The translations under genes were made by a program, and so were the position numbers. A stretch of 64,000 nt of DNA. Origin: Acidobacteriota bacterium (GTDB lineage Bacteria > Acidobacteriota > Vicinamibacteria > Marinacidobacterales > Marinacidobacteraceae). Where the stretch lies: positions 3,782 through 67,781 of the forward strand of contig VXNL01000079.1 of the NCBI GenBank assembly GCA_009840635.1. Direction: 5' to 3'. Positions 3,323-49,310 of this stretch are shown here, in pieces. Position 1 is the first letter of the stretch; the number at the start of each line of letters is the position of its first letter. Below the pieces are notes generated by a model. The model ran no database searches, was not told the DNA's origin, and was given only the letters and a program-made list of their open reading frames with translations.

Positions 3323-3344
3323 CCAACCGTCGCGGAGCCCCCGG

Positions 3345-4367
3345 TTACCCGGCGCCCGACAGCCTCGAGAAGGCCGCGCCAATCTCTCCGGCGGTCCGTC
3401 CGGCTCCGAGCGCCACGGTGAGCAGGATGCGGGCCTTCAGGCCGTCGAGGTCCCCCCCGGAGAGGATCCCCCGCTCCTGCTGGGCGTCCGAAAGCACCAC
3501 CCGGCCGGCCCCGGTGCGGGTCACGAACACCACCACCGCGCCGGCCTGAATGGCGGCATCCACCGCTTCCGCGACGGGTGGCGGTGCGTTGCCGCGGCCG
3601 AAGACCTCCACGACCAGGCCCCTGGCGCCGGCCTGGGCCGCCGCGCGGATCGAGGAGGCGCCGCCGCCTGCGGTGAGCCGCACCAGTTCTACCGCCGGCT
3701 CGACGCCCGTGGCGGGAAGGTGGAGACGGCGGGCCGGAGTCGTGAAGAGCAGCACCGTGCCCTCGTCCACCGCGCCGATGGGGCCGGTGTCCGGTGAGGC
3801 GAAAGCGTGCAGCGCGATGGAGTGGGTCTTCTTCACCTCGCGCGCCGCGTGGATCTGACCGTTCAGCACCACGAGCACGCCCAGGTCGCGACTTCGTTCC
3901 GAAGCGGCGACCCGGATCGCATCGAGCAGGTTGCGCGGCCCGTCGGAGTCCTCGTACCGGGGCGGGCGCTGTGCGGCGGCAAACACGACGGGACGGCCGG
4001 ACGGCAGCACGAGGTCCAGCAGGAAGGCGGTTTCCTCGAGGGAGTCGGTGCCGTGGGTCACCACGACCCCGGCCAGTCCCGGCCGCTCGGCGAAGACTGC
4101 GGCAATCCGTTCCGCGAGCTGGAACTGGAGTTCCGGATGCATCCGGGAACTTCCGATGCGGACGAAGTCCTCGGTGGTGACCGAAGCCACGGAGTCCAGG
4201 CCGGGCAGGGCGGCGCGGAGATCGCCGGCGTTCAACGGTCCACCCGCCCCCCCGGAGATGGTGCCCCCGGTGCCGATCAGGTGCACCTCGGGCAGCGGTT
4301 GTCCCGACGCTTGCGAAGCGAAGACGACGATGAGGGAAGCGGCTCCCGCGCGCACGAATCGGTTCAT
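3345..4367 (-). CDS. ansB: L-asparaginase type II, periplasmic
   Basis: It has a signal peptide and the motifs HLIGTGGTISG and VVTHGTDSLEETAF. Length is 340 aa. Confidence 0.9.
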   Translation of the reverse strand: MNRFVRAGAASLIVVFASQASGQPLPEVHLIGTGGTISGGAGGPLNAGDLRAALPGLDSVASVTTEDFVRIGSSRMHPELQFQLAERIAAVFAERPGLAGVVVTHGTDSLEETAFLLDLVLPSGRPVVFAAAQRPPRYEDSDGPRNLLDAIRVAASERSRDLGVLVVLNGQIHAAREVKKTHSIALHAFASPDTGPIGAVDEGTVLLFTTPARRLHLPATGVEPAVELVRLTAGGGASSIRAAAQAGARGLVVEVFGRGNAPPPVAEAVDAAIQAGAVVVFVTRTGAGRVVLSDAQQERGILSGGDLDGLKARILLTVALGAGRTAGEIGAAFSRLSGAG

Positions 4368-7955: not shown

Positions 7956-7975
7956 GGCGGGTCAACCCCGCGCCG

Positions 7976-8026
7976 TGCGCGGTGCGGAGCACCGCGGTGC
8001 CGGTCTGGAAACCGGCGTTCCAAGCC
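7976..8026 (-). repeat. REP-like element, family 1 (hairpin GCGGTGC-GGA-GCACCGC plus GTGCCGGTCTGGAAACCGGCGTTCCAAGCC)
   Basis: It lies in the convergent intergenic gap between the ALDH and tenA genes. The core ...CCGGCGTTCCAAGCC recurs at 26.1, 39.9, 42.7 and 49.2 kb. Confidence 0.7.
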
Positions 8027-8072
8027 GGCGCGCCATGCGGGCGCGGGGTATCCCCGTGCGGTTCCCGGGTCG

Positions 8073-8787: not shown

Positions 8788-10233
8788 CTACCCGAACACC
8801 ACCGGCACCCAGAAGACCGCGAACAGGCAGGTGAGGACCGCGCCGATGATGTTCACCCCGATGCCGGCGCGCACCATCTGAGGGATCGTGAAGTGTCCGG
8901 TTCCGAACACGATGGCGTTCGGCGGGGTGGCTGCGGGCAGCATGAATGCGCAGGAGGCGGCGACCGTCACCGGAAGCAGCAGCATCAGCGGCGGGATGCC
9001 GGCGCCCGTGGCGACGGCGGCCAGGATGGGCACCATCATCGCGGTCGACGCGAGGTTCGAGGCCAGCTCGGTGAGCAGGATGATGAACACCACCACCATG
9101 ATCACGAACAGCGGAAGCGGCAGCGCCGAAGCGCCGGCGAGACGGTCGCCCAGAAACTGGGACAGCCCGCTCACCTCCAGACCGTTCGCGAGCGAGAAGC
9201 CGCCGCCGATCAGGATCAGGACGTCCCAGGGAATCTTCACTCCCCATTCCCAGTTGAGGATGCGTTCCCCCGAGCCGTTCCCGGCGGGGACGAGGAAGCA
9301 CAGCACTGTCGCCGCCATGGCGATCGTGGAATCGCTGATGAGCCCGCCGGTCGGCAGGAACCCGGTCCAGACCGGGCGGAACATCCAGGCCAGGGCAGTG
9401 GCCCCGAACAGGACGGAGAGTCGCTTCTCCGGGGTGGAGAGCGGTCCGAGCGCCTGGTAGGCGGAGCGGACCGGCTCCCGGCCGCCGGGAATGTCCTTGA
9501 TCCGGATCGGAAACGCGACGCGGGTGAGCCAGAGCCAGGTCAGGGGGAGAAACAGGACCGTCAGCGGCATCGCGAAGGCGAGCCAGCGCACGAAGGTGAT
9601 CTGGATGTCCAGTTGCTCGCTCAGGAAACCGGCGAGGAACACGTTGGGCGGCGTTCCGATGAGGGTCGAGAACCCACCGATGGAGGCCCCGTAGGCGCAG
9701 CCGAGCATCAGGCAGACCGCGAACGGGAAATCCCCGGGGGCGGGCCGCCTGGGCCCGTGGACCGCCCTCGATATCTCCGCGATCACGGCGACCCCGATCG
9801 GCATCATCATCGCGGTGGTGGCCGTGTTGGAGACCCACATGGACAAGAACGCGGACGCCACCATGAAGCCGAGCACCAGCCGGGGAGGCGAGCTGCCCAT
9901 CGCCATCACCGTCCGGAGCGCGATCCGCCGGTGCAGGTTCCAGCGCTGCATCGCCTGGGCGATCATGAACCCGCCCAGGAAGAGGTACACGAGGTGGTTG
10001 GCGTAGGGCGCCGCCGCCCCCGCCGCGTTCGTGATCCCGAACGGCGGGAGGAGCGCCAGCGGCAACAGGGAGGTCACCGCCAGCGGCGCCGCTTCCGTAA
10101 CCCACCAGGTGGCCATGATCGCGGCCACCGCCAGCATCCGGCGCGCCTCGTCGGGAATGCCCGGGATCGGGACGACGGCGATGCCGACCAACAGGGCCAG
10201 CCCGAGGACGAGTCCGATCCGCTCGCGCTTCAT
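8788..10233 (-). CDS. DASS family (SLC13-like) sodium-coupled anion symporter
   Basis: A 481-aa polytopic membrane protein with the SNTATTAMMMP and PPNAIVFGTG hairpin motifs of DASS/CitT transporters. Confidence 0.85.
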   Translation of the reverse strand: MKRERIGLVLGLALLVGIAVVPIPGIPDEARRMLAVAAIMATWWVTEAAPLAVTSLLPLALLPPFGITNAAGAAAPYANHLVYLFLGGFMIAQAMQRWNLHRRIALRTVMAMGSSPPRLVLGFMVASAFLSMWVSNTATTAMMMPIGVAVIAEISRAVHGPRRPAPGDFPFAVCLMLGCAYGASIGGFSTLIGTPPNVFLAGFLSEQLDIQITFVRWLAFAMPLTVLFLPLTWLWLTRVAFPIRIKDIPGGREPVRSAYQALGPLSTPEKRLSVLFGATALAWMFRPVWTGFLPTGGLISDSTIAMAATVLCFLVPAGNGSGERILNWEWGVKIPWDVLILIGGGFSLANGLEVSGLSQFLGDRLAGASALPLPLFVIMVVVFIILLTELASNLASTAMMVPILAAVATGAGIPPLMLLLPVTVAASCAFMLPAATPPNAIVFGTGHFTIPQMVRAGIGVNIIGAVLTCLFAVFWVPVVFG

Positions 10234-19172: not shown

Positions 19173-19574
19173 ATGCCCCGAACCAACACCCTGTCTCCCG
19201 AGGTCCGGGAGTTCCTGGCGACCCGCTGCTACGTCCACCTGGCCACCCTGATGGCCGACGGCAGCCCCCAGGTCTCCCCGGTCTGGGCGGAGACCGACGG
19301 AGACCTCATCGTGGTCAACTCGGCGGCCGGTCGGGTCAAGGACCGGAACATCAAGCGCGACGCCCGGGTCGCGCTCTCCGCGACCCATCCGGAGGACCCG
19401 TTCAAGGCGCTCATGATCCGGGGCCGGGTGGTGAAGGTCACCGAGGACGGCGCCGAGGACGGGATCGACCGCCTCGCCCGGAAGTACATCGGCGGCGAGC
19501 GCTACGAGTGGCGGCGTCCGGGCGAAGTGCGGGTCGCCTACTACATCCAGCCGGAGACCGTAAAGACGCTCTAA
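19173..19574 (+). CDS. Pyridoxamine 5'-phosphate oxidase family (PPOX-class) protein
   Basis: A 133-aa protein with the pattern CYVHLATLMADGSPQVSPVW...LIVVNS. An RBS GGAG lies upstream. Confidence 0.75.
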   Translation: MPRTNTLSPEVREFLATRCYVHLATLMADGSPQVSPVWAETDGDLIVVNSAAGRVKDRNIKRDARVALSATHPEDPFKALMIRGRVVKVTEDGAEDGIDRLARKYIGGERYEWRRPGEVRVAYYIQPETVKTL

Positions 19575-19580
19575 CGCGTC

Positions 19581-19623
19581 GGAGCGCCGGCCTCTGGCCG
19601 GCATCGCGGCCCGGGAGGGCCGC
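19581..19623 (+). repeat. REP-like element, family 2 (GGAGCGCCGGCCTCTGGCCGGCATCGC plus GGCCCGGGAGGGCCG hairpin)
   Basis: It starts 7 nt after the PPOX stop. The same element occurs after stop codons at 20.6, 30.9, 32.9 and 39.8 kb. Confidence 0.75.
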
Positions 19624-19746
19624 GAAACGGGACCTCACTGCCCGCGCAGACGGCAGGAACGCGTCGGAGGATCGGCCTTCGGCCGGCCCGGCTTTCCATG
19701 GGTACGAAGCACCAGACGGGCTGGACGCCGAGGTGCCATCGTTTGT

Positions 19747-19773
19747 GGTATTTTTCTTACCATGGTAACTACC
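19747..19773. promoter_or_regulatory. Cluster of GGTA/TACC inverted half-sites, including the perfect palindrome TTACCATGGTAA over the vapB start codon; candidate VapB operator
   Basis: GGTA-N7-TACC, TTACCATGGTAA (19757-19768) and GGTA-AC-TACC are read directly from the sequence. They overlap the ATG at 19762. Confidence 0.5.
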
Positions 19774-20034
19774 ATAGATTCTGCCGGCCGGTTGGTCATT
19801 CCGAAGACGATCCGAGAAGCGGCGGGACTCGGAGCCGGTACACGGGTCCATCTGCGACTCGAATCCGACCGGGTGGTTGTGGAACCGGCGCCGCTTTCCG
19901 TAACCCTTGAGCAACGTGGGACGATGGTCGTGGCGGTGGCGCCTCCGGGAACGCCGCAAATGAAGGCGTCGGACGTTGCTCGCACGATCGAGGAACTGCG
20001 GGGGATGGATCCCTCGGCGGATCCGATGGCGTGA
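19762..20034 (+). CDS. vapB: AbrB/SpoVT-fold antitoxin
   Basis: IDSAGRLVIPKTIREAAGL...VVVEP is a looped-hinge-helix motif. Length is 90 aa. It overlaps the vapC start. Confidence 0.8.
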   Translation: MVTTIDSAGRLVIPKTIREAAGLGAGTRVHLRLESDRVVVEPAPLSVTLEQRGTMVVAVAPPGTPQMKASDVARTIEELRGMDPSADPMA

Positions 20035-20465
20035 CCCGTTACCTGTGCGACACCAGCGTCCTGGTCGCCTCCCTCTGCGACTGGCATCAGCACTACAGCC
20101 TTTCGCGTAACGAGATCCTTGGGCGAACTCAAGCTGGACAGGAACTCGTACTTGCGGCGCACTCGTTGGCCGAGACGTACGCAGTACTGACGCGGCTACC
20201 GGGGCACTACCGACTTCCGCCTGAGGCTGCCATCGCTCTCATTCAACGGAACTGGCTCGAGACGCCAACCATCCACCTCGATGGGCGCGAAGTCTGGGAT
20301 GCCCTGGGTGAGGCGTATCGTCAGGGAGCGACCGGGGGCCGAACGTACGACCTGCTCATCGCCCACTGTGCGATCAAGGCCGGTGCTTCCGCCTTGGTGA
20401 CCTGGAACCTTCGGCACTTCGCCGCCTTCGCAAACAGACTGAACGTCGTGACGCCAGCGGGTTGA
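20031..20465 (+). CDS. vapC: PIN-domain toxin
   Basis: It begins YLCDTSVLVA (acidic D). A Glu lies in the LAETYAVL region, followed by DLLIAHCAIKAGASALVTWNLRHF. The GTG start overlaps the vapB stop (GTGA). Confidence 0.8.
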   Translation: MTRYLCDTSVLVASLCDWHQHYSLSRNEILGRTQAGQELVLAAHSLAETYAVLTRLPGHYRLPPEAAIALIQRNWLETPTIHLDGREVWDALGEAYRQGATGGRTYDLLIAHCAIKAGASALVTWNLRHFAAFANRLNVVTPAG

Positions 20466-20593
20466 CTGGTGCCGAGTTCGCAGAGCGTGAGGGGGATGCG
20501 TCGGCGGGGAATCTCCCGGCTGGCGACGAATGTCCGCTCCGTCCGGCGGGCGTCTGCGGCGGCCGTGGAAGCCGGGGGCGCCTGGGTACGCAG

Positions 20594-20639
20594 TTTCGCC
20601 CGCCTTCGGCGGACGATGCCGGCCGGAGGCCGGCGCTCC
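20594..20639 (-). repeat. REP-like element, family 2, inverse orientation (GATGCCGGCCGGAGGCCGGCGCTCC) plus CCGCCTTCGGCGG hairpin
   Basis: Its reverse complement is GGAGCGCCGGCCTCCGGCCGGCATC. It lies 13 nt downstream of the minus-strand SDR stop. Confidence 0.7.
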
Positions 20640-20652
20640 GAATCGGCGTTCC

Positions 20653-21381
20653 CTATCCGGGGGCGTCCACGACGGAGCCGCTCATCGAAGCTGGGGCCTC
20701 ACTGCCGAGCCAGACGATGACGTCGGCCACCGCCTCGGGCGCGGACCGCGGTTTGGCGCCGGGTATGGCGGTTCGATAGGACTCGGTATCCACTGACCCG
20801 GGACAGACGGCGAAGACCGAGATCCCGGCCGGCCGCAGCTCCTCCGCGGCAGCCTTGGTGAGGCCCACGACGCCCCACTTGGAGGCGCAGTAGGCGGCGA
20901 GGCGGGGTGCGCCGATCCGTCCGGCCATGGCCGCGAGGTTCACGATGCGGCCTTGCCGCCGCTCGATCATGCCGGGGAGCACGGCGCGGGTGCAGAGGAA
21001 CGTCCCCTTCAGGTTTACGCCGAGAACGCTGTCGAAGTCCGCATCGGACGTCGAGGTCAACGGGGCCCGGTGGACGGCGCCGGCGGCGTTGACCAGCAGC
21101 TCGACGGGACCCAGGCGGCGCTCCGTCTCCTGCACGAGTTCGGCGACCTGACCCGGCTCGGTGACGTCAGTCGGCGCCACAAACGCGTGGCCGCCCGCCT
21201 GGCGAATCCGGTTCTGCACGGCAACCAGCCCCACCGGACGCCGCGCCGCGATGCCGACGGCGAAACCGCGTTCGACCAGTTTCAGCGCCGTGGCCGCTCC
21301 GATCCCCTGACTCGCGCCGGTGACGATGGCTACGGATAGTCCGGCCGGGCCGGAGGCGGCAGGTTGCGCGGGCGCCGTCAT
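20653..21381 (-). CDS. Short-chain dehydrogenase/reductase (SDR)
   Basis: It has the TGASQGIG Rossmann motif, NAAG, and the YCASK catalytic Tyr-Lys. Confidence 0.9.
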   Translation of the reverse strand: MTAPAQPAASGPAGLSVAIVTGASQGIGAATALKLVERGFAVGIAARRPVGLVAVQNRIRQAGGHAFVAPTDVTEPGQVAELVQETERRLGPVELLVNAAGAVHRAPLTSTSDADFDSVLGVNLKGTFLCTRAVLPGMIERRQGRIVNLAAMAGRIGAPRLAAYCASKWGVVGLTKAAAEELRPAGISVFAVCPGSVDTESYRTAIPGAKPRSAPEAVADVIVWLGSEAPASMSGSVVDAPG

Positions 21382-24769: not shown

Positions 24770-26041
24770 GTGACCCAACCGAGCGGCGGCGAGGCCCTCC
24801 GGATCTACGAGAAGACGCTCGCCTGTGTCCACTGCGGTCTCTGCCTGCCGGCGTGTCCCGCCTACGAGAACGCGCCGCGCGAGTCGCTCGCCCCGCGCGG
24901 GCAGGTCTTCAACGCCCGCGCCCTGCTGGAGGGCCGGCTGCCCGCGAGCGACGGCCTGGCGGAGGACCTCTACGAGTGCCTCGCCTGCCGCGGCTGCGAA
25001 AGCGTCTGTCCGGCGGGAGTGGAAGTCGGCGCCATCGTCGAGGGAGTCCGGGGGCTGCTGGACGAGGAAGCGGTCGAGCCGCGCCGGGTGCGGGTGCTGA
25101 AACGGTTCGCGCTCGGGGTGGTGGTGGCCCGGCCCGCGGTCCTGAAAGCGGCGATGTGGCTGCTCCGGTTTACGGGGCGCATCGGCCTTCGCCGGCTCGT
25201 GCAGCCGGTGCTGGCCCGCCTGGCGCCGAAGCTCGCGGCGCGGGAACGGTTGCTCCCCGACGTCCCGGCGCGGGAGCGTTTCCCGGCGCGGATCTCCCCG
25301 GGCGGCGAAGCGCGCGGGACGGTGGCGCTTTTCCTCGGCTGTGTCGCGCCGCATCTCCGGCCGGAAACCAGCCGGGCGGCGATCGAGGCGCTCGTCGCGA
25401 ACGGCTGGGAGGTGGTGATTCCCAGGGAGCAGGGATGTTGCGGCGCGCTCCATCTCCACGCCGGCCTGCCGGATCTGGCGCGGGGGCTGGCGCGCCGGAA
25501 CCTGGCGGCGTTTCCGGACGACCTTCCGGTGGTGACCACCGCCGCCGGCTGCGGCGCCGCGCTCTCGGAATACGGTGAGCTTCTGGACGCTGAACTACCC
25601 GCTGATGTTTTCTCGCGGCGGGTGACGGACGTCTCGGCGTTCCTCGCGGAGAGCGGCTGCCGCCCGCCCGCAGCCGGCCCCCGGGAGACGCCGCTGCGGG
25701 TCGTCTACGACGCGCCCTGCCATCTCTTCCACGCCCAGCAGGTCCGCGAGGAGCCGCTCCGGATCCTCCGCAGCCTGCCGGGCGTGGAGCTCGTCACCGT
25801 GCGTGACCCCGAGCGCTGCTGCGGCTCCGCCGGGATCTACAACGTGACCCGGCACGACACCTCAATGGCGGTCCTCGACCGGAAGATGGCGAACATCGCT
25901 CCCGCGGATCCCGACCTCATCGCCACCGGGAACATCGGCTGCCAGCTCCAGCTGGCCGAGGGCGCCCGGCGCGCCGGGATAAGCGCGGAGGTCGCCCACC
26001 CGGTCGAACTCCTCGCGGACGCCTACCGGCGGGAGAAATAG
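24770..26041 (+). CDS. glcF: Glycolate oxidase iron-sulfur subunit GlcF
   Basis: Two 4Fe-4S ferredoxin motifs are present (CVHCGLCLPACP and CLACRGCESVCP). It also has CCG domains (CCGSAG). A GTG start is used. Confidence 0.9.
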   Translation: MTQPSGGEALRIYEKTLACVHCGLCLPACPAYENAPRESLAPRGQVFNARALLEGRLPASDGLAEDLYECLACRGCESVCPAGVEVGAIVEGVRGLLDEEAVEPRRVRVLKRFALGVVVARPAVLKAAMWLLRFTGRIGLRRLVQPVLARLAPKLAARERLLPDVPARERFPARISPGGEARGTVALFLGCVAPHLRPETSRAAIEALVANGWEVVIPREQGCCGALHLHAGLPDLARGLARRNLAAFPDDLPVVTTAAGCGAALSEYGELLDAELPADVFSRRVTDVSAFLAESGCRPPAAGPRETPLRVVYDAPCHLFHAQQVREEPLRILRSLPGVELVTVRDPERCCGSAGIYNVTRHDTSMAVLDRKMANIAPADPDLIATGNIGCQLQLAEGARRAGISAEVAHPVELLADAYRREK

Positions 26042-26070
26042 GGAACCCCCGCGGTGGAGAATCGCGCGAC

Positions 26071-26117
26071 GGCTTGGAACGCCGGCTTCAGCCGGCACAG
26101 CCCGCCGAAGGCGGGCG
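26071..26117 (+). repeat. REP-like element, family 1 (GGCTTGGAACGCCGGCTTCAGCCGGCACAGC plus CCGCCGAAGGCGGG hairpin)
   Basis: This is the left arm of an inverted doublet with the copy at 26190-26235. Confidence 0.8.
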
Positions 26118-26189
26118 GCGAGACGGACCTCATTCGCCGGGATGACTCGGCTGCATGCGCCAATAAACCCGGGGTAGCGACGAACCGCC

Positions 26190-26235
26190 GCGGCCCTGCG
26201 GGCCGCTGTGCCGGCTGAAGCCGGCGTTCCAAGCC
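26190..26235 (-). repeat. REP-like element, family 1, inverse copy (GGCCCTGCGGGCC hairpin plus GTGCCGGCTGAAGCCGGCGTTCCAAGCC)
   Basis: It is the reverse complement of the unit at 39854-39900. The right arm of the doublet lies about 70 bp from the left arm. Confidence 0.8.
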
Positions 26236-26248
26236 GCTGCGCCCGGTA

Positions 26249-27811
26249 CTACCGCCCCTTTCGCGGCAGCTTCTCGTCCGCCATCGCCGCGTGGTAGACG
26301 AACGCCGCGACCACCACCGCGTTCTTCTTGAGGTCGTCGATCGGCAGGGTGTCGTAGAAGTCGAGGTTCGTGTGGCCGCCGGTGCCGCCGACCCGCGCCT
26401 GCAGGAACTGGAAGCCCGGCAGGCCCGCGTCGTCGAACGCCACGTGGTCGGTGCTGCCCACGCTGGCGGGCGCCAGCGTCGTCATCCCGAAGTCGTGGAA
26501 CGGCGCCATCCACGCTTCGAAGATCGGCCGCACGTGCTCGTTCTCCTGGAGCCAGACGCCCCGGTAGCGGCCGGGGCCGTAGTCCTGGTTGAAGTACGCG
26601 GAGACGTTGTCGTAGCCGGGTTTCGTCCCCGTCTCGGGGTCGCCGAAGTGCTGCTTCACGTAGGCCCGCGACCCGAAGATGCCCTGCTCCTCGCCGGACC
26701 AGAGCGCGATCCGGATCGTCCGGCGCGGCTCGGCGCCGACCGCCTTCAGGATGCGCATCGCCTCCAGCATCACCGCCACTCCCGAGGAGTTGTCGCTGGC
26801 GTTCGGGCTCGCGTGCCAGGTGTCGAAGTGGGCGCCCAGCATCACCAGCTCGTGGGCGAGGTCGGTCCCCGCGATCTCGCCCAGGACGTTCCGGGCCTCG
26901 CTCGCCGCCTCGCCGTGCCGGTTCCGGACCTCGAGCTCGATGGTGACGGGGACTTCGCGCCGCCGGATCCGGTACATCCGGTTGTAGTGCTCCGGGGTGA
27001 CCGCGATGATCGGCACCGAAGACAGGGTCGCCTCCCTGTCCCACATGTCCACCTTGGCGCCGGGGCGGGCGAACCCGCGCACCGCGCCCGGCCAGCCGCT
27101 CCGTGACTCGAGTACTGCGGCGGCTCCCTCGTCGACGTAGAACTGGAGTCGTTCGAAGGGGCTCAGGACGTCCGGGTGCGGCGGCAGGTCCGCGTACTCG
27201 CTCGTGAAGAGCGGGTCCGTCGCCAGCCTCGGCAGCACGTTCGCCGCGAGCTGCTCCATCGCCTCGTCGGTGCGTTCGGGCGTCCCGGTGGCGAAGCGGG
27301 TCCGGTCCACCGCCGCCGGGGGCGTCGAGAGGACCGCCTTGCCGTGGAGCTTCCCGCGCAGGGCGTCGAGGTCGCCCCGCGTCCGGACGTCGGCGATGAC
27401 GACCTCCAGCGTTTCAGGGCCTTCGGTCCCCGGCGTGTGGGCGATGGGGTAGCCGACGAGCGTCTGGTACACCGGCTCCCGCATGTGGAGCGAGAAGTAG
27501 TCGTTGTCCCAGCTCGCCCCGTAGTTCATGAAGGGCTCGCGGACCGTGTTCACGAGCCCGATCTCGGCCATCTCCTCGAGCAGCCACTGCTGGGCCCGGT
27601 CCATCGCCGCCGAGTTGGTGAGCCGGCCGCCGATCACGTCGGTCATGTAGGAGAGGGTGTCGGGAAGCTGCGACCGATGAAGTCCCTCCTCCCGGATCTT
27701 CGCGATCATCTCCCGGTCCACGGGGAAGGGATCCTGGGCCGCGGCGGCGGTGGTGACGCCGAAGACCGCAGCCGCACCCGCGATCGACGCCCGGATCAGG
27801 TACTGCCTCAT
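26249..27811 (-). CDS. M28-family secreted aminopeptidase with PA domain
   Basis: It has a signal peptide and Zn ligands in the HFDTWHA...DNSSG and EEQG motif context. Length is 520 aa. Confidence 0.85.
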   Translation of the reverse strand: MRQYLIRASIAGAAAVFGVTTAAAAQDPFPVDREMIAKIREEGLHRSQLPDTLSYMTDVIGGRLTNSAAMDRAQQWLLEEMAEIGLVNTVREPFMNYGASWDNDYFSLHMREPVYQTLVGYPIAHTPGTEGPETLEVVIADVRTRGDLDALRGKLHGKAVLSTPPAAVDRTRFATGTPERTDEAMEQLAANVLPRLATDPLFTSEYADLPPHPDVLSPFERLQFYVDEGAAAVLESRSGWPGAVRGFARPGAKVDMWDREATLSSVPIIAVTPEHYNRMYRIRRREVPVTIELEVRNRHGEAASEARNVLGEIAGTDLAHELVMLGAHFDTWHASPNASDNSSGVAVMLEAMRILKAVGAEPRRTIRIALWSGEEQGIFGSRAYVKQHFGDPETGTKPGYDNVSAYFNQDYGPGRYRGVWLQENEHVRPIFEAWMAPFHDFGMTTLAPASVGSTDHVAFDDAGLPGFQFLQARVGGTGGHTNLDFYDTLPIDDLKKNAVVVAAFVYHAAMADEKLPRKGR

Positions 27812-28668: not shown

Positions 28669-30852
<2,184 letters not shown>

Positions 30853-30864
30853 ACGGTCCGCCTC

Positions 30865-30906
30865 GGAGCGCCGGCCTCCGGCCGGCATCGCCCGCGCAGC
30901 GGGCGA
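30865..30906 (+). repeat. REP-like element, family 2 (GGAGCGCCGGCCTCCGGCCGGCATCGC plus CGCCCGCGCAGCGGGCG hairpin)
   Basis: It starts 12 nt after the katG stop, in the convergent gap with the carbonic anhydrase gene. Confidence 0.75.
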
Positions 30907-30921
30907 AACCCGCAACGCCCC

Positions 30922-31723: not shown

Positions 31724-32860
31724 ATGATCGAGTGGCTCGGCATCGGCCACCTGCTGGAGCTTTCCGGAACGGAGGCGGTTCTGGGGTTTCTTACCCCCCT
31801 GCTGGTCTTCGTCTTCTTCTTCGTGGCGCAGCTCATCCTGCCGGGACGGTGGGTTCCCGGCTACGTCGTCGATCCGAAGACCGGTGAGCCACGGAAGTAT
31901 CGGCTGAACGGCCTCCTGGTGTTCGTCATCGCCCTGGTTGTGTGGGCCTTCGAGCTCACCGGCATGCCCCGCGACTGGTTCTACCGGTCTTCGCTCTACG
32001 CCGTCGCCGGGGGAACCCTCCTCACCATCATCTTCACGATCCTCGCGGTGTTCAGCCAGCCGGAAGGCAGGGTCAAGAACCGGTTCCTGGCGTGGTGGTT
32101 CGGGCGGGCGCAGGAGCTGCAGTTCTTCAACCACCGCTTCGACGTGAAGATGTGGTTCTACGTCGTCGGCGGGACGATGCTGTCGCTGAACGCCCTGTCG
32201 GGGGCCGTCTACCACTATGAACTCTTCGGCGAGAACTCCAATCCGGGCGTCTTCGTGTACGCGGGGTTCTTCACGTTCTACGTGCTGGACTACTTCGTCT
32301 TCGAGCGCGTCCAGCTCTACACCTACGACCTGATCCACGAGAACGTCGGTTTCAAGCTCTTCTGGGGCGGCCTCATCGTCTACGGCTGGATGTTCATCCT
32401 CCCGCTCTGGGGCATGGCCGTCTACCCGCATCCGGGATTCTCGCCGGCGGCGACGAACGCTTGGCTCATCGGGACGGTGGCGATGTTCCTCTTCGGGTGG
32501 GGCATCTCGCGCGGCGCCAACCTGCAGAAGTACACGTTCAAGCGCTGGCCCGACCGCACGTTCCTGGGCATCGAGCCCGAGGTCATCGAGGCCGGCGACC
32601 GCAGGATCCTGTGCAGCGGTTTCTGGGGCGTCGCCCGTCACTTCAACTACCTGGGCGAGGGATTTCTGGGGCTGTCGATCGCCCTGATCTTCGGCCACTT
32701 CACAAACTTCTGGGCCTGGACCTACTTCATCTTCGTCGTCTCGATGTTCACCTACCGCCAACGGGACGACGACGCGCACTGCGCCCAGAAATACGGCCCC
32801 GAGAAGTGGGCGGAGTACCAGGCACGGGTGAAGTACCGGATCGTCCCCGGGATCTACTGA
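31724..32860 (+). CDS. ERG4/ERG24/DHCR7-family sterol reductase homolog
   Basis: Sterol reductase signature 2 is present (LCSGFWGVARHFNYLGE), as is the GANLQKYTFKRWPD motif. It is a polytopic membrane protein of 378 aa. An RBS GGAAGGGAGG lies upstream of ATG 31724. Confidence 0.8.
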   Translation: MIEWLGIGHLLELSGTEAVLGFLTPLLVFVFFFVAQLILPGRWVPGYVVDPKTGEPRKYRLNGLLVFVIALVVWAFELTGMPRDWFYRSSLYAVAGGTLLTIIFTILAVFSQPEGRVKNRFLAWWFGRAQELQFFNHRFDVKMWFYVVGGTMLSLNALSGAVYHYELFGENSNPGVFVYAGFFTFYVLDYFVFERVQLYTYDLIHENVGFKLFWGGLIVYGWMFILPLWGMAVYPHPGFSPAATNAWLIGTVAMFLFGWGISRGANLQKYTFKRWPDRTFLGIEPEVIEAGDRRILCSGFWGVARHFNYLGEGFLGLSIALIFGHFTNFWAWTYFIFVVSMFTYRQRDDDAHCAQKYGPEKWAEYQARVKYRIVPGIY

Positions 32861-32864
32861 GCTT

Positions 32865-32909
32865 GGAGCGCCGGCCTCCGGCCGGCATCGCGGCCCGAGA
32901 GGGCCGCGA
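32865..32909 (+). repeat. REP-like element, family 2 (GGAGCGCCGGCCTCCGGCCGGCATCGC plus GGCCCGAGAGGGCCG hairpin)
   Basis: It starts 5 nt after the sterol-reductase stop. Confidence 0.75.
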
Positions 32910-33004
32910 TACCGTGAACGGCAGATGGAGCGAGTGGCGCGCAGGGTGGGACCGCCGGTCTGAAGGCCGCTACCGCGAGAACCGGCCGGCGGTCCCGGCC
33001 GCCC

Positions 33005-37713: not shown

Positions 37714-38352
37714 GTGAGACCCGAAACCGCCAGCGCGGAGGCACCCGGGCCGGCCGTGGACCGCGAACGGCTCGCGTCGGCGGTCGAGGCGCTGCTCTTT
37801 TCCCACGGGGCGCCGGTCACGGGCGAACGCCTCGCCGAAGTGCTCGAGACCGGCCTGAAGGAGGTGCTCGCCGCCCTCGACGAGCTGGAGGTGCGGTATG
37901 CGGCCCTGGAGTCCGGGCTGCGGCTGGCCCGGATCGCGGGAGGCTTCCAGCTCACCACCCGGGCGGAATGGAAGGGCGCGATCGAGCGTCTCATCGCGCC
38001 GAAGCGGGAGCAGGCGCTGACCGAGGCGGCCCTCGAGGCGCTGTCCGTCATCGCCTACCGGCAGCCGATCACCTTGCCGGAGCTGAACGAGATCCGCGGG
38101 GTGAACTCCCACAGCGTGGTCACCACCCTCATGAAACACCGCCTGGTCCGCTCCCGGGGGCGCAAGCAGGTCGTCGGACGGCCGCTCCTCTACGGGACCA
38201 CGAAGGATTTCCTCGAGCGATTCGAGCTCGACCGGCTGGAGGACCTGCCGAAGCTCGGCGAATTCGAAGAGGCGCTGGCGTCGGCCGCGCCCGTTCCGAT
38301 GGAATCCGAAGTCGGGGAGCCTGGCGCCGATCCCGCCGAGGTCTCCGAATGA
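37714..38352 (+). CDS. scpB: Segregation and condensation protein B
   Basis: Winged-helix ScpB motifs are present (LEALSVIAYRQPITLPELNEIRGV). Confidence 0.8.
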   Translation: MRPETASAEAPGPAVDRERLASAVEALLFSHGAPVTGERLAEVLETGLKEVLAALDELEVRYAALESGLRLARIAGGFQLTTRAEWKGAIERLIAPKREQALTEAALEALSVIAYRQPITLPELNEIRGVNSHSVVTTLMKHRLVRSRGRKQVVGRPLLYGTTKDFLERFELDRLEDLPKLGEFEEALASAAPVPMESEVGEPGADPAEVSE

Positions 38353-39812
38353 CCGCCGAGCGGCTCCAGAAACTGATCGCGGCTGCCGGGATCGCCTCGC
38401 GGCGCGCCGCGGAACGGATGATCGCCGAGGGCCGGGTCACCGTGGACGGGGAGGTGGTCGGCGTTCCCGGGGTGCGCGCGGACCCGGCGCTCCAGGACAT
38501 CCGGGTGGACGGAGCCCGGCTCCGCAAGCTCGGCAAGCCCCGGCGCTACGTGATTCTCAACAAGCCCATCGGCCACCTGACGACCCGCTCGGACCCGGGA
38601 CGCCGTTCCACGGTGATGGATCTGCTGCCCCATTCGTTCCGCTCGCTGGTTCCGGTCGGGCGGCTCGACGGCAACAGCTCGGGACTCGTGCTGCTCACCG
38701 ACGACGGGGAGCTGGCGCAGCGGGTCACGCATCCGCGGTACCGGCTGCCGAAGACCTACTACGCCACCGTCCGGGGGCTTCCCGCCGAAGACGTGCTCGA
38801 GCGGGCGCAGCGCGGCGTCCGCGTCGATGGCGAGGGGCTGCGGCTCGACCAGGTCGAGGTCATCGCCCGTTTCCCGCACCGGGCGGAGTCGAAGCGCCGC
38901 GCGCGTCTCCGGGTCACCCTGCGGGGCGGGCGGAACCGGGAGATCCGGCGGGTGCTGAGCGTCCTGGGCCATCCGGTCCTCGAGCTGCACCGGACCCGGA
39001 TCGGCTCTCTCGCCGACACCGGGCTCACCCCCGGGGGCTGGCGCAAGCTGCGCGGCGACGAGGTGGACGAGTTGCGGGAGTTGATCCGGCGGTGCGCGGG
39101 CGAGCCGGCGGCGCCCGCCGAACCGGCTGATTCGGAACCGGCAGTTCCTGCCGCCCGGCCCGCGGCCGCGGCATTCGTGGTGGCGATCGACGGGCCGGCG
39201 GGGTCCGGCAAGACGTCCGTGGCGCGCGCGGTCGCCGAACGTTTCGAACTCGGTTACTTCAACACCGGGGCGTCGGTGCGCGCGGTGGCGCTCGCGGCGA
39301 TGCGGCAGGACATGGATCTCGACGAAGGCCCGTCCCTCAGGACCCTCGCCTTCCGGGTGATCCTCGATCCGGAAGGCCGCGTCTTCCTCGACGGCGAAGA
39401 TGTCTCCCAGGCCGTCCGCGCGCCCGAGGTCTCCGCCGGCGCCTCCCGCGTCGCCGTCCACCCCGAGCTGCGCGAGGTCCTGGTGGAGCGTTGGCGGCAG
39501 TTCGCGGCGGGCGGCGGCGTGGTCGAGGGCCGGGACATCGGCACTGTGGTCTTCCCCGAGGCGCCGGTGAAGGTCTTTCTGGACGCGCGGCCGGAGATCC
39601 GGGCCCGGCGCCGCTCCTCGGACGAGGGAGACCGCGACGTGGGCGCCGTCCAGTCCGAACTCCGCCACCGTGACCACACCGACTCCGGCCGGGCGGTGGC
39701 TCCCCTCCGCCGGGCGGAGGACGCCCACCATCTCGACACCAGCGACCTCACGCTCGAGGAAACGGTGGAGCGGGTGGCGGAACTGGTGGAAACGGCGCGA
39801 TCTCAAGCCTGA
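38349..39812 (+). CDS. In-frame fusion: S4-domain RluB/RsuA-type pseudouridine synthase plus cytidylate kinase
   Basis: The N-terminal half carries an S4 domain and a pseudouridine synthase catalytic region (VGRLDGNSSGLVLLTDDG). A Pro/Ala linker follows. The C-terminal half carries the Cmk P-loop (AIDGPAGSGKTSVARAVAERF). A single 487-aa ORF has no internal stop. Confidence 0.75.
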   Translation: MTAERLQKLIAAAGIASRRAAERMIAEGRVTVDGEVVGVPGVRADPALQDIRVDGARLRKLGKPRRYVILNKPIGHLTTRSDPGRRSTVMDLLPHSFRSLVPVGRLDGNSSGLVLLTDDGELAQRVTHPRYRLPKTYYATVRGLPAEDVLERAQRGVRVDGEGLRLDQVEVIARFPHRAESKRRARLRVTLRGGRNREIRRVLSVLGHPVLELHRTRIGSLADTGLTPGGWRKLRGDEVDELRELIRRCAGEPAAPAEPADSEPAVPAARPAAAAFVVAIDGPAGSGKTSVARAVAERFELGYFNTGASVRAVALAAMRQDMDLDEGPSLRTLAFRVILDPEGRVFLDGEDVSQAVRAPEVSAGASRVAVHPELREVLVERWRQFAAGGGVVEGRDIGTVVFPEAPVKVFLDARPEIRARRRSSDEGDRDVGAVQSELRHRDHTDSGRAVAPLRRAEDAHHLDTSDLTLEETVERVAELVETARSQA

Positions 39813-39816
39813 CGCT

Positions 39817-39900
39817 CCGAGCGCCGGCCTCTACTGCGCCGGGAGGCGCCGCCGGCTTGGAACGCCGGCTTCAGCCGGCACAGCGGCCCGCAGGGCCGCG
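39817..39900 (+). repeat. Composite REP: degenerate family-2 element (GAGCGCCGGCCTC...) followed by a family-1 unit (GGCTTGGAACGCCGGCTTCAGCCGGCACAGC plus GGCCCGCAGGGCC)
   Basis: It starts 5 nt after the rluB-cmk stop. It forms the left boundary of the low-GC island. Confidence 0.75.
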
Positions 39901-40094
39901 GGCGACGTGCCGTCATTTGCCTTGGGCGACTGAGGTCCGGGAACGTTCCGCCTGCTCGTTTGGACCGAGAGAAGCCCCTCTTCCGACAGGTCAGCGTTGC
40001 GACGCCATTGATTTATCGAATGTCCAGGACGGGTTCGAGTGTCCGAATGTCGATTCCCGTGTCGGAGACCTCCCGCGCGACGTGAGGCCAACAA

Positions 40095-40637
40095 TCAAAA
40101 GGCATCCGCTTCGGGCAACCGCAGAATGCTCCAATTCTCCCGATAGGCGTCAAGCCAGCCCGATCGATACCGATCAAGCGTCTTCCTTCCTTTCTCCGTG
40201 ATCGGCTTGATGTTCGAGTAGTCGGGTAACAGCCGACGCACGTCGCTGTCCTTGTGTGGCTGACCTGCTTTGCCGGGAGTGTCGAGCCACACTTGGTGGC
40301 AGTCGCGAATACAGGCCGCCACCACGCTGGAGGGAAGGACGTAGCAAACCGTCGTATCGGACGGCTGTTTGCCGACGTCGACTAAGACGTAGAACAGATC
40401 GTCGGCGACCATGGTCGCGTGCCTAGCCCTCATGTGCCAGCCCTTGTCGCCTCCGATGCCACGTCGCGTCTTTACTTGGATGGCACACAACTTCTTGGAG
40501 TTCTTGTCGGTGACCAGGATGTCCATGTTCGGTGCCCCATCCGGTGCGAGGGCCGCAATCCAGCCACGCCGCAACAACTGACTGAGCACGTGATACTCGC
40601 CGGCGGCGCCGACGATAGTCGAACTGATCTTGTGCAT
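40095..40637 (-). CDS. Mrr-cat / PD-(D/E)xK-like (Hjc-like) nuclease-fold protein
   Basis: GAAGEYHV (E), NMDILV (D) and CAIQVK (QxK) are spaced as in Mrr/Hjc catalytic cores. It lies in a lower-GC patch. The ATG at 40635 is preferred. The track ORF extends to 40700. Confidence 0.55.
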   Translation of the reverse strand: MHKISSTIVGAAGEYHVLSQLLRRGWIAALAPDGAPNMDILVTDKNSKKLCAIQVKTRRGIGGDKGWHMRARHATMVADDLFYVLVDVGKQPSDTTVCYVLPSSVVAACIRDCHQVWLDTPGKAGQPHKDSDVRRLLPDYSNIKPITEKGRKTLDRYRSGWLDAYRENWSILRLPEADAF

Positions 40638-40748
40638 CGGGTCAGAGCGGTCCTTCAGGCGGAGGTTCAACGGTACGGGGTTCTGACGCCAGTGAGGCAC
40701 AGAACAGGACGTCCACCCCGAGCGTGGCGCGCCTCCCGAGGCTTTGAA

Positions 40749-41303
40749 TCAGGACGAACGCCTCGATGCGGGCCCGAAGAGACTCCCCGGGGCCGCTTTC
40801 TGCGCATCGGCGCCGTTGCTGTCGAGAACGAAACGCGCCCGCTCGGCACGTAGCATGGCAAAGGGCGTCACGCATTTGACGCCGAGACCGATGCATACGT
40901 TGGGGATCTTGATTCTCCTTGGTGTATCGGCGGGCACCTCGTGCGTTACGACCGCGTGTCCCCCGGTCAGGGCCTGACCGACCAAGTAGTAGTCGGCGGC
41001 CTGCAGGAACGAGTTGATCGCCGCCGGGTCGTACGACTGCTCCCTTACCCATTCGCTTACTCGTTCCAATGACGGCAAGTCGGCTGCCTGAGGCAGGACG
41101 AAGAACTCCGGACCTCGCTGCTTGGCCCACTCCCGAAGTTCGTCGTCCGAGGCACCGATTTCGTCGCCCACTTTGTCGATACTGCGCACCAGCCCGCGGG
41201 CGTGGCCGACCACGATCCAATCCCAGAAGCCAGGACAGAAGTCGAAACCGTAGTGAAGGTTCTTCGCAGCGATCAGGACATTGGCGTCCAGGAGGTAGGC
41301 CAT
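40749..41303 (-). CDS. DUF4411 PIN-like domain protein (putative toxin/effector)
   Basis: The N-terminal MAYLLDANVLIAAKN is a PIN motif, followed by GFWDW. Downstream acidic residues lie in ADYYLVGQAL...VVTHE, then KIPNVC. The start overlaps the upstream gene stop (TGATG). Confidence 0.6.
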   Translation of the reverse strand: MAYLLDANVLIAAKNLHYGFDFCPGFWDWIVVGHARGLVRSIDKVGDEIGASDDELREWAKQRGPEFFVLPQAADLPSLERVSEWVREQSYDPAAINSFLQAADYYLVGQALTGGHAVVTHEVPADTPRRIKIPNVCIGLGVKCVTPFAMLRAERARFVLDSNGADAQKAAPGSLFGPASRRSS

Positions 41304-42451
41304 CAGGAAGTCAGGCCCAGGCGGCGGCTCAGTTCGTTGAAGGTCGCCATCTTGCGGAACCCGAGAAGGCGGAAGGCCTCCGTGTAGGACGAGCGGCCTT
41401 CCAGGGTGGCCCCGACGACGGCCCGGGCGAACTGCTTGCTGACCCGGGCGCCGATGCTCCTGTAGAAGTCGCCGCCGGAGTCACGGGCCACGGCGCGGAG
41501 CCTGTCGAGTTCTTCGTCGTAGGCGTTCCAGTACTCCTGCCGGGTGAGGGCGCCGAGTTCGTGGAGACGTCGTAGCACCACCAGCGTGCTCACCTTGAAG
41601 TGGCGGGCGAGTCGCGTGGCCTCTGCCGGAAGTGGCGCGCTGGGGCGATACTCCGCTCGCACCAGCCGGATCGGGGCCAGGATTTCCGCCGCCACCTGGT
41701 TGCAGAAGCGCTCCGTCTCGTGATCGGGGATGACGCGGTCCTGACTGTCGGAGAGCGCCGTTTCTCCAAGCCAGACATGAGCCAACTCGTGGGCTAGCGT
41801 GAACATCTGGGCCGACTTCGAGTCCGCTCCGTTCACGAAGATGACCGGCGCGAGATCGTCCACCAGAGCAAAACCGCGGAACTCCCGGAAGTCCAGCCGG
41901 CGGCGCGTGTTGCTCCCGACCACGCCGCTGACCATGACGAGCACCCCGAGGCTGTTGGCCTGTTCAACGAAGAGCCGCAGTGCCGCGGTCCACGTTGCGA
42001 GGCGGCGCCGTTCTTCGAGGTCGAACCGGAGCGCGGCGCGGATCCGATCGGCCACTCCCTCGACATCGTCCGAACGGCTCACCGAGCCGACAAAGTCCAG
42101 CGGCGCTTCTCCGTCCGTACGGGCGTTGTCGCGGTACCACGCCTGCCGTTGCTGGCAGAGGTAGATCGTGTCCAGCAGGTCGGCGCTGGGCCGGGCGACA
42201 GGTTTGTCAGCGATGGTGCGGAAGTCCGGGATGGGAAGGCGCTCCTCCGGCGGTTCGGGGAGGAAGAAGAAACCGATCGGGGTGCGCGAAGCCTTGGCAA
42301 AGCGTTCCAACTGTCTGAGCGTCGGGTTCTCCGCGCCGCGTGCCCAGGCCGGGAACGCCGGAAAACGCTGCGCCAGGGTCTCGGGCTCAAGGCGGCCGCG
42401 TTCGCACGCCCAGCGGAGTACACCGGCGTGGACGGGTATGCGCACAGTCAT
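41303..42451 (-). CDS. HTH (XRE-like) domain fused to an ImmA/IrrE-family (M78, COG2856) zinc metallopeptidase
   Basis: It carries the HEXXH motif HELAHVWLGE. The N-terminal helix-turn-helix region spans PTLRQLERFAKASRTPIGFF. Length is 382 aa. Confidence 0.75.
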   Translation of the reverse strand: MTVRIPVHAGVLRWACERGRLEPETLAQRFPAFPAWARGAENPTLRQLERFAKASRTPIGFFFLPEPPEERLPIPDFRTIADKPVARPSADLLDTIYLCQQRQAWYRDNARTDGEAPLDFVGSVSRSDDVEGVADRIRAALRFDLEERRRLATWTAALRLFVEQANSLGVLVMVSGVVGSNTRRRLDFREFRGFALVDDLAPVIFVNGADSKSAQMFTLAHELAHVWLGETALSDSQDRVIPDHETERFCNQVAAEILAPIRLVRAEYRPSAPLPAEATRLARHFKVSTLVVLRRLHELGALTRQEYWNAYDEELDRLRAVARDSGGDFYRSIGARVSKQFARAVVGATLEGRSSYTEAFRLLGFRKMATFNELSRRLGLTS

Positions 42452-42642
42452 GGGAAGCTATTGCCGAGGGCGCGACATGGGCCGTTCGATAGTTCCTTCA
42501 TGTGGGCTATTCGCTCGACACCGGGGCTGCTCACCGGGGTAAGCCCCCGGGGATCGTATTCTGCCGAAGCAACCGGAGTGAGCTGTTCCCGCGCATTCGC
42601 GACGGAATCGGAAAAGCCCATTCCTTCGAGCGCGGCCAGCCT

Positions 42643-42692
42643 GTTTCGCCCGCCTTCGGCGGGCTGTGCCGGCTGAAGCCGGCGTTCCAAGC
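42643..42692 (-). repeat. REP-like element, family 1, inverse orientation (CCGCCTTCGGCGGG hairpin plus GTGCCGGCTGAAGCCGGCGTTCCAAGC)
   Basis: It is the reverse complement of the 26071 unit. It forms the right boundary of the low-GC island. Confidence 0.8.
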
Positions 42693-42732
42693 TGTTGCGC
42701 CACTACGGCCCGTGGCGGCCGGCCGCGTCTTC

Positions 42733-49044: not shown

Positions 49045-49136
49045 GAAGGGGGCAGCGGGGCGCCGGGGAGTATGGGCGTTGCGAGCCGTTTCGTCGTCAG
49101 GCGGGGGGCGTTGCGCACTTTGCGGACCTGTGGCCC

Positions 49137-49253
49137 GCGGTGCCGGCTGAAGCCGGCGTTCCAAGCCAGGGGTGCGCTCTGGGCGCGCGTCAGGTTGGGA
49201 CGTGCGCGGCGCGGAGCGCCGCTGTGCCGGTCTGGAGACCGGCGTTCCAAGCC
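49137..49253 (-). repeat. Two direct REP-like family-1 copies: 49137-49167 (loop CTGAAG) and 49204-49253 (GCGGCGC-GGA-GCGCCGC hairpin plus loop TCTGGAGA), in the divergent LysE/fadD spacer
   Basis: Both end in CCGGCGTTCCAAGCC. The second copy has the same subtype architecture as the copy at 7976-8026. Confidence 0.75.
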
Positions 49254-49310
49254 GGAGGTGAGGTCCTGGCGCGCGTGGTTGCGTAAGATCACTGGCCGGA
49301 GGTGCCCCCC

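Follow-up and report, generated by a model that had tools for sequence, protein, structure and literature searches.

Sequences of the repetitive extragenic palindromic (REP) type are known from Pseudomonas and Enterobacteria as REP doublets or REPINs (REP doublets forming hairpins), in which an inverted pair of REPs with a short spacer is intergenic, folds into a long hairpin and is copied whole (Bertels and Rainey, 2011, PMC3116915; Ton-Hoang, 2012, PMC3333891). The REPs of the GTAG and CGTC superfamilies are palindromic intergenic repeats with an unpaired conserved end, which form dimers, commonly heterodimers, and sometimes have DNA between the partners; no Vicinamibacteria family is among the superfamilies listed in that survey (Di Nocera et al., 2013, PMC3733652). 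REP palindromes also serve as targets for insertion sequences (IS), such as IS1397, ISKpn1, IS621, ISPpu9/10 and ISPa11 (Tobes and Pareja, 2006, PMC1525189; PMC12288879), and in Neisseria the Nf/MDA filamentous prophages use the most abundant subtype of the 20-bp palindromic dRS3 repeat as attachment site, their recombinase being proposed to drive dRS3-dRS3 rearrangements (PMC3898611). Here, a related arrangement is described from 64,000 nt of Acidobacteriota DNA (contig VXNL01000079.1; the window), in which positions 26061-26245 are formed by two inverted copies of a two-hairpin repeat unit of about 60 nt, hereafter the 26-kb doublet. The repeat is a member of a REP superfamily abundant in sponge-associated and marine Vicinamibacteria (Acidobacteriota), the doublet appears to be a REPIN-like element, ordinary in kind though taxonomically new, and the 17-bp second hairpin of one of its arms is, on comparative grounds, the putative attachment site (attB) of P4-like tyrosine integrases that form a multi-copy family.

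The unit is about 60-68 nt long and, with copies oriented by their conserved end, has five parts, namely a short GC-rich 5' flank, often TGGCGC followed by N3-4; an unpaired conserved head, which reads GGCTTGGAAC in family 1 and TCGGAGC in family 2; a near-invariant hairpin 1 with a GCCGGC stem; a linker of 3-4 nt; and hairpin 2, a 7-9-bp stem that varies in sequence from copy to copy while the pairing is kept, often with GCG(A)AAC next to it. Family 1 and the second family (at 19.6, 20.6, 30.9 and 32.9 kb) have this architecture in common. In the 26-kb doublet, the A unit (26061-26128) leads from a 5' GCGC flank and the family-1 head through hairpin 1 (GCCGGC-TTCA-GCCGGC) to hairpin 2 (GCCCGCC-GAA-GGCGGGC, 26100-26116), and the B arm has GCGGCCC-TGC-GGGCCGC as its hairpin 2. 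Over 57 nt, its arms (26064-26120 and 26186-26242) show 84% complementarity, and 65 nt separate them; a 30-nt core, GGCTTGGAACGCCGGCTTCAGCCGGCACAG, occurs five times in the window at no more than one mismatch, compared with no occurrence in 100 shuffles. Folded as single-stranded DNA, the doublet reaches -78 kcal/mol (z = -8.3), whereby the two hairpin 1 regions pair together and each hairpin 2 forms a local stem. It lies between the converging genes for a GlcF-like Fe-S protein (CCG and Fer4 domains; + strand, end at 26041) and an M28 peptidase (- strand, stop at 26249).

A covariance model made from the 11 window copies was run over 824 kb, comprising the window and related loci (tiles, numbered with the prefix L), and identified 301 units, 11 of them within the window. 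Covariation was computed on the 150 best model matches (147 distinct units), an alignment that is itself fitted to the model; standard pairs occupy 99.3% of its cells, six of the seven hairpin 2 pairs show changes on both sides, and the covariation score of hairpin 2 is 0.405 versus 0.113 when shuffled (0/500 reach 0.405) and 0.03-0.08 with the partners slid. In 70% of 308 units, versus 1.4% of shuffled flanks, hairpin 2 has a perfect stem of 7 bp or longer, with 129 distinct hairpin 2 sequences observed. The copies are thus stem-loop-forming imperfect palindromes, many, dispersed and nearly all intergenic, as is characteristic of REPs: 11 of 225 units from a regular-expression scan lie inside genes called with a codon log-odds caller, and a further 74 adjoining locus ends could not be placed. 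No Rfam 15 family matches at gathering score anywhere in the window, or at E <= 1 within 25950-26350.

Compared with the known REPs, several differences emerge. By inspection, neither a GTAG nor a CGTC tag stands beside either stem (the complement of the head is GTTCCAAGCC), and in contrast to the GTAG/CGTC superfamilies (PMC3733652) the units are longer and have two stems. Unlike in REPINs, one of the two hairpins of the unit is invariant and the other covarying, the 10-nt head is not GTAG, the two arms carry different second hairpins, the host belongs to the Acidobacteriota, and doublets are a minority, whereas direct tandem arrays with a period of about 84 nt dominate. These arrays also distinguish the family from bacterial interspersed mosaic elements (BIMEs), where REPs alternate regularly, as alternation is confined to the doublets here.

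Scanning a single genome of each species for the exact pattern gave at least 106 tiles, almost all of them from metagenome-assembled Vicinamibacteria (Acidobacteriota) of sponges and sea water and two from bins labelled Chloroflexi and Gemmatimonadaceae. The sources include OY821641, OZ220713, OZ244986 ('Ca. Marinacidobacterium'), JAJEIY, JAJEFG, JAJDVI, JAJDUD, CAYUVU, MPMW bin61, VXWI and JAPPGX, and the window is 90-93% identical to syntenic stretches in several of the source genomes. The census of unit arrangements was made on 8-kb tiles picked for the exact family-1 pattern, which should leave relative orientations unaffected. Where neighbouring units are separated by less than 200 nt, 25 pairs have the convergent arrangement (heads out) and no pair the divergent one, and about 69 pairs are repeated directly in tandem, their period being close to 84 nt. 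The core gap of the convergent pairs has its mode at 109-114 nt; it measures 106-114 nt in 13 of the 25 and 111 nt in the doublet of the window. A preliminary description of the locus had reported the same arm sequences and coordinates, had placed the doublet in a convergent glcF/M28 gap, which the flanking genes bear out, and had listed further family-1 copies, which are real (about 7969-8036, and 49110-49177 with 49196-49263). The enrichment of doublets that it proposed as a check is present, and with a fixed geometry. In place of its wording 'head-to-head', 'convergent' fits better, as the heads point outward, and its 'BIME-like' does not suit a family with direct tandem arrays.

The doublet recurs as a composite. 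Six further copies of the AB type are found at L043 and L014 (OY821641), L093 and L102 (OZ220713), L027 and L115; across the seven copies, which come from at least five Vicinamibacteria genomes, two of them with at least two copies each, arms and spacer together are 86-93% identical, and a comparison of the 600-nt flanks revealed nothing in common. Two related glcF/M28 gaps are without the doublet, as the gap of L118 (M28 90% identical) holds one different unit and that of L119 (M28 86% identical) holds no unit and a 975-nt low-GC insert (2700-3674), hence the 26-kb doublet is seen as a lineage-specific arrival that probably entered the gap only in the lineage of the window. The inverted REP pair with a short spacer, with doublet and spacer as the replicating unit, corresponds to a REPIN, and the AB composite of about 165-185 bp would be copied as a whole, as REPINs are, the likeliest agent being an enzyme that acts on the folded single strand. 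With regard to the periphery of these elements, about 30 more conserved nt (CGGCGGCGCCATCACGGCCGTTGGCCAA) follow beyond the B-arm head in the right flanks of the AB doublets L093, L102, L027, L014 and L043, and the copy of the window is without this extension and runs directly into the M28 stop codon. The L119 insert encodes a protein of about 230 aa.

Inverted arms, a length of about 165-185 bp and several dispersed copies could equally describe a conventional MITE (miniature inverted-repeat transposable element), that is, an IS deletion derivative with terminal inverted repeats of about 55 nt that is moved by a DDE transposase, and a 580-nt REP-bounded composite is duplicated at 91% identity in one genome (L017/L062). 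However, no target-site duplication is visible at any of the seven AB copies, the supposed terminal repeats are units far commoner as singles and direct tandems than as doublets, and no full-length transposase-bearing parent was seen between unit pairs, which leaves a MITE origin highly improbable. The duplicated composite (about 580 nt; L017 1700-2320 and L062 6480-7110) is bounded by convergent REP units and contains no evident open reading frame, and its copies lie 416 kb apart on one 'Ca. Marinacidobacterium' chromosome.

A different explanation is suggested by the position of the units relative to genes. Units that occur singly or in tandem within co-directional gaps (up to 600 nt) lie in sense in 33 regions and in antisense in 6, many units start 2-45 nt past a stop codon, and hairpin 2 is conserved as structure, all of which would be expected if the units had evolved in place as ordinary RNA elements of the 3' end, either terminators or hairpins that stabilise mRNA, with the doublet being the 3' elements of two convergent genes. 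In contrast to this expectation, the whole doublet including its spacer recurs at unrelated loci, and doublets occupy co-directional (8), convergent (10) and some divergent gaps, so that more is involved than one 3' element from each of a pair of converging genes. Tandem arrays of units are also present in the divergent promoter gap between the genes for LysE and an acyl-CoA synthetase, hence a sense 3' position is not obligatory, and the unit content differs between orthologous gaps. Moreover, the hairpins are never followed by a T-run, as intrinsic terminators would be, but by GCG(A)AAC or GG.... Evolution in place as 3'-end elements is therefore considered rather improbable, while the sense excess points to a transcript-level benefit or an insertion bias, and a role at the transcript level may be the reason why sense copies persist. 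The number of tandem copies in the LysE/acyl-CoA synthetase gap varies among relatives, with two in the window, two in L109 (1884-1991), four in L111 (1635-1909) and four in L113 (1513-1864).

Both arm sequences of the 26-kb doublet recur in the window at 39844-39910 and 42637-42703, where they flank a 2.7-kb low-GC island between the cmk gene and an acyltransferase gene. Complementarity of the right arm to 39853-39901 is 100% over 49 nt, as the preliminary description had noted, and that of the left arm to 42647-42700 is 96% over 54 nt; these swapped complementarities mean that the order of the 26-kb pair is reversed at the island, being B...A and not A...B, with the heads outward and the tails inward in both cases. 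The earlier assertion of the same pair in the same arrangement is thus right for the two variants and their outward heads, but not for their order.

This likeness had led to the proposal that an AB doublet received the island between its arms and that the 26-kb doublet is the unoccupied form of such a site. Both sites are indeed flanked by the two hairpin 2 variants A and B, each of which accounts for only about 4-8% of units, L115 carries an intact B-spacer-A doublet directly behind cmk, followed by MacB and preceded by the same upstream flank as in the window, and DNA inserted between REP dimer partners is known from the literature (PMC3733652). However, the repeated sequence stops at about 39950 on the left of the island and resumes at about 42640 on the right, and the inner edges, both of which were checked, carry no half of the 65-nt doublet spacer. 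Furthermore, the A unit is bordered on its outer side by the acyltransferase gene and not by the MacB side of L115.

The relatives of the two flanking blocks are more informative. Behind the acyltransferase gene, JAJEFG (L198/L109) has two units, ImmA, DUF4411, an unknown gene, an 11-kb integrase island and DUF418; the second of these units is A-type, with the GAAAC tail of the 42.6-kb unit of the window, to which it is orthologous, so that in JAJEFG it is DUF418, not cmk, that lies beyond the island. In L113, the acyltransferase gene is followed by a degenerate unit, HTH (helix-turn-helix), ImmA, DUF4411, two units of another type and DUF418, and in L111 it overlaps the converging DUF418 gene, with no island and no unit between. 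The ImmA module, being located between the acyltransferase gene and DUF418 in L113 and L198, is thus older than the cmk junction. Behind cmk, L116, L117 and L083 have a converging DUF2090 gene, with one unit in the gap of L083 and none in that of L116 by regular-expression scan (L117 was not scanned). The window leaves the homology to L115 right after the B-arm hairpin 2 and switches to the long-type extension that is found beside the ImmA module of L198, which looks like recombination within a unit and not like insertion into a spacer. From the comparison of the cmk and acyltransferase loci, the 42.6-kb A unit is assigned to the acyltransferase gene, as its own 3' singleton, and the cmk/acyltransferase adjacency is read as a synteny breakpoint inside a REP unit; in the most likely history, two B units would have recombined and so joined the cmk block to the acyltransferase block.

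A filled doublet is accordingly an unlikely account of the island, and the view of the 26-kb doublet as its empty counterpart is given up. That boundaries of islands and rearrangements coincide with REP units in related genomes was seen in the orthologous loci; the wider suggestion of doublets as insertion targets or recombination boundaries is retained for the REP units, which are both, but the target found is a single hairpin of one arm and not the doublet. Convergent pairs 0.2-3.6 kb apart were also considered as cargo carriers in general, but their contents are mixed (ychF, pckA-like and queG-like housekeeping genes as well as toxin-antitoxin pairs) and follow no clean rule; among pairs 1-3.5 kb apart, 11 are convergent versus 3 divergent.

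Several further observations concern this region. Between the orthologous units behind the acyltransferase gene a compensatory change is seen, as the stem reads GCCCGCC/GGCGGGC at 42648-42664 of the window and GTCCGCC/GGCGGAC at about 7095-7111 of L198 (JAJEFG). In otherwise collinear non-coding DNA of the ImmA module, a 57-nt REP-like unit with a GCCGAC stem is present in L109 (11126-11185; JAJEFG) and absent from the window at about 40000, a single-unit indel polymorphism. In the 'cmk' gene (38349-39812), an S4 domain, an RluB-like pseudouridine synthase and a cytidylate kinase are fused, and the fusion is conserved across the lineage. The stretch from the stop codon of this gene to the B unit (39815-39845, CCGAGCGCCGGCCTCTACTGCGCCGG) resembles a decayed family-2 unit and is conserved in L115, and in L114, the closest cmk relative (95% identical), a VapB-PIN pair (9506-10140) takes the place of the doublet directly behind cmk; the space behind this gene is a hot spot for small cassettes.

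The B-unit hairpin 2, with the pattern GCGGCCC-NNN-GGGCCGC, marks the ends of integrase islands in related genomes. The homology between L109 and the window ends exactly at the hairpin 2 edge, where AT-richer DNA and the gene for a 402-aa integrase follow (Pfam domains Arm-DNA-bind_3, Phage_int_M and Phage_integrase). In L198, the repeats GCGGCCTTGCGGGCCGC (at 9798) and GCGGCCCTGCGGGCCGC (at 21047) stand 11.25 kb apart, with 16 of 17 positions identical and the consensus GCGGCC[T/C]TGCGGGCCGC; the element in between begins with the integrase gene and carries several unknown genes, a SacI-like endonuclease (the L199 copy is where its domain was detected), an HTH protein and a C5 methylase. The second repeat is succeeded by hairpin 1, the head and the stop codon of DUF418. 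Joining the L198 flanks restores the order extension, hairpin 2, hairpin 1, head, and this product is about 90% identical to the window at 39840-40010 over 152 nt, hence the window carries the empty site. In L205 (OZ220713), perfect 17-bp repeats (17/17) surround a 7.4-kb element, and the left one lies inside a sense REP unit behind a gene with a tRNA-editing domain. Three more left junctions, with hairpin 2 and then the element, are found at other loci, namely L100, L200 (one mismatch) and L201 (the species of the window), and the distance from the hairpin 2 junction to the start of the integrase gene is about 190 nt in L198, L100, L200, L201 and L205.

The features expected of an attB are thus found, with the integrase at one junction, direct core repeats at both, and an unoccupied site equal to the joined flanks. 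Islands with restriction-modification and other accessory genes would insert at hairpin 2, duplicate the 17 bp and split the REP unit. With the units oriented alike, insertions are found on both sides of hairpin 2, owing to the perfect palindromy of its stem. The integrase family comprises 7534 homologues at E <= 1e-60, and several paralogues occur on single contigs, as expected for a multi-copy target. Two exact B-type hairpins are present in the window, at 26190-26206 and 39883-39899, and the former, being identical to the 17-bp island repeat, is a candidate unoccupied attB. A search of the window found no integrase, and tRNA genes, as alternative targets of the integrase, are absent from the window, L109, L111 and L113. 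The integrase-proximal ends of the islands (L198 9815-9840, L100 6914-6940, L200, L201, L205 and L206) contain two spaced GTTCC repeats, e.g., AATCACTCGGTTCCATCGACTTCC; these and the REP-head complement may be integrase-binding motifs in common, or a coincidence.

The REP-targeting IS have in common with these islands the site-specific insertion into a REP palindrome and the use of many sites per genome by one element; however, they rely on IS3, IS110, IS4, IS256 and IS5 transposases and carry only themselves (PMC1525189, PMC12288879), whereas here a P4-like tyrosine integrase, cargo islands of 7-11 kb and a 17-bp att duplication are involved. The Neisseria dRS3 enzyme is of the Piv/IS110 type and belongs to a filamentous phage, in contrast to a tyrosine integrase of non-phage islands whose target is a single hairpin within a larger REP unit. 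In integrons, attC sites likewise combine a tyrosine recombinase with an imperfect palindromic repeat flanking small cassettes, often toxin-antitoxin genes, but an integron was rejected, given that there is no IntI-type integrase and no attI, and that the units are scattered between core genes, convergent, and form no co-oriented array. A full-text search for literature joining REP, integrase, attB and genomic islands found none, which is weak evidence of novelty.

Taken together, a REP unit, a REPIN-like doublet, recombination between two B units at the island pair and hairpin 2 as attB jointly form the best explanation of the data, to which a probability of about 0.7 is assigned. A number of points weigh against it. 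No REP-associated tyrosine transposase (RAYT), the enzyme of the REPIN systems, was identified when about 1.5 Mb of loci were scanned for an HUH...Y motif, a test too crude to exclude one. Copy densities are inflated, as the tiles were picked for containing the family-1 pattern. Homologues of MacB, DUF2090, DUF418, MIP and Dyp were sought in the window and not found, hence the reciprocal product of the proposed recombination is not in the window. From the variant frequencies, the A/B pairing at the island would arise by chance in roughly 1% of cases, and this coincidence leaves residual weight on a more complex history starting from an AB doublet. Finally, an integrase relative in L206 (85% identical) abuts hairpin 1 without a hairpin 2, and the attB evidence is comparative throughout.

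The features of the window are collected in Table 1. Among the remaining units, the two family-2 copies at 19.6 and 20.6 kb are convergent and enclose a VapB (AbrB-type, 19762-20034) and VapC (PIN, 20031-20465) module of 64% GC; they belong, as 3' units, to a PNPOx-like and an SDR gene, and their second hairpins are B-like (GCGGCCC-GGGA-GGGCCGC) and A-like (TCCGCC-GAAG-GCGGGC), respectively.

Table 1. Repeat units, putative attachment sites and island genes of the window
Feature	Position	Strand	Remarks
Family-1b unit, hairpin 1 CCGGT-TTCCAG-ACCGG	7968-8036	-	convergent gap; covariance model
Family-2 unit, head TCGGAGCGCC	19566-19634	+	2 nt past stop of upstream gene; left flank of VapBC module
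Family-2 unit	20586-20654	-	9 nt past stop of SDR gene; right flank of VapBC module
Left arm of doublet, A unit	26061-26128	+	covariance-model match, 70.8 bits
Doublet spacer	26121-26185	none	arms and spacer conserved jointly in six further copies of AB type, whose loci are unrelated
Right arm of doublet, B unit	26178-26245	-	covariance-model match, 70.0 bits
B-type hairpin 2, GCGGCCCTGCGGGCCGC	26190-26206	none	same as the 17-bp direct repeat around integrase islands elsewhere
Family-2 unit	30850-30915	+	fills convergent gap
Family-2 unit	32850-32917	+	overlaps stop codon of upstream gene
B-type unit	39844-39910	+	42 nt past cmk stop codon; 5' flank, head and both hairpins match the L115 B arm
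Hairpin 2 of the 39.8-kb B unit, GCGGCCCGCAGGGCCGC	39883-39899	none	empty state of the putative attB of the L198 11.25-kb island
'Long-type' extension	39901-39950	+	follows some units (L090, L072, L104, L198); distinct from the AB-doublet spacer
Low-GC module	39951-42640	-	64% GC versus 70% in the window
Unknown protein of 180-201 aa in module	40095-40700	-	
DUF4411 protein in module	40749-41303	-	
ImmA/IrrE-type metallopeptidase in module	41303-42451	-	
A-type unit	42637-42703	-	hairpin 2 at 42648-42664; 40 nt past acyltransferase (GPAT) stop; singleton-type GAAAC tail
Two tandem units, period 86 nt	49111-49263	-	divergent LysE/acyl-CoA synthetase gap

The genomes of sponge-associated Acidobacteria are mostly known as fragmented metagenome bins, and this repeat family is in part responsible for where their contigs break, as in another assembly of the same species (GCA_009836105.1) the contig VXVZ01000052.1 (L107) ends exactly at the 39.8-kb REP unit. 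With this family, a well-covarying two-hairpin REP without the usual GTAG tag is now found outside the Proteobacteria. The putative hairpin attB yields a concrete rule, open to testing, on the landing sites of accessory islands in such genomes, would explain why restriction-modification, toxin-antitoxin and ImmA-type modules are found beside REP units, and would extend REP-targeted integration, so far seen for IS and the filamentous phages of Neisseria, to islands with tyrosine integrases. Going further, and with a clearly smaller though not negligible likelihood, the REP and the P4-like integrase families could be a coupled system, in which one hairpin of a repeat that is dispersed and inherited vertically provides genome-wide landing pads and the integrase also recombines REP copies, as at the cmk/acyltransferase break; in the strongest form of this idea, the tyrosine recombinase, and not a RAYT, may spread units and doublets. 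If this were true, a single integrase lineage could seed defence and accessory islands at dozens of sites.

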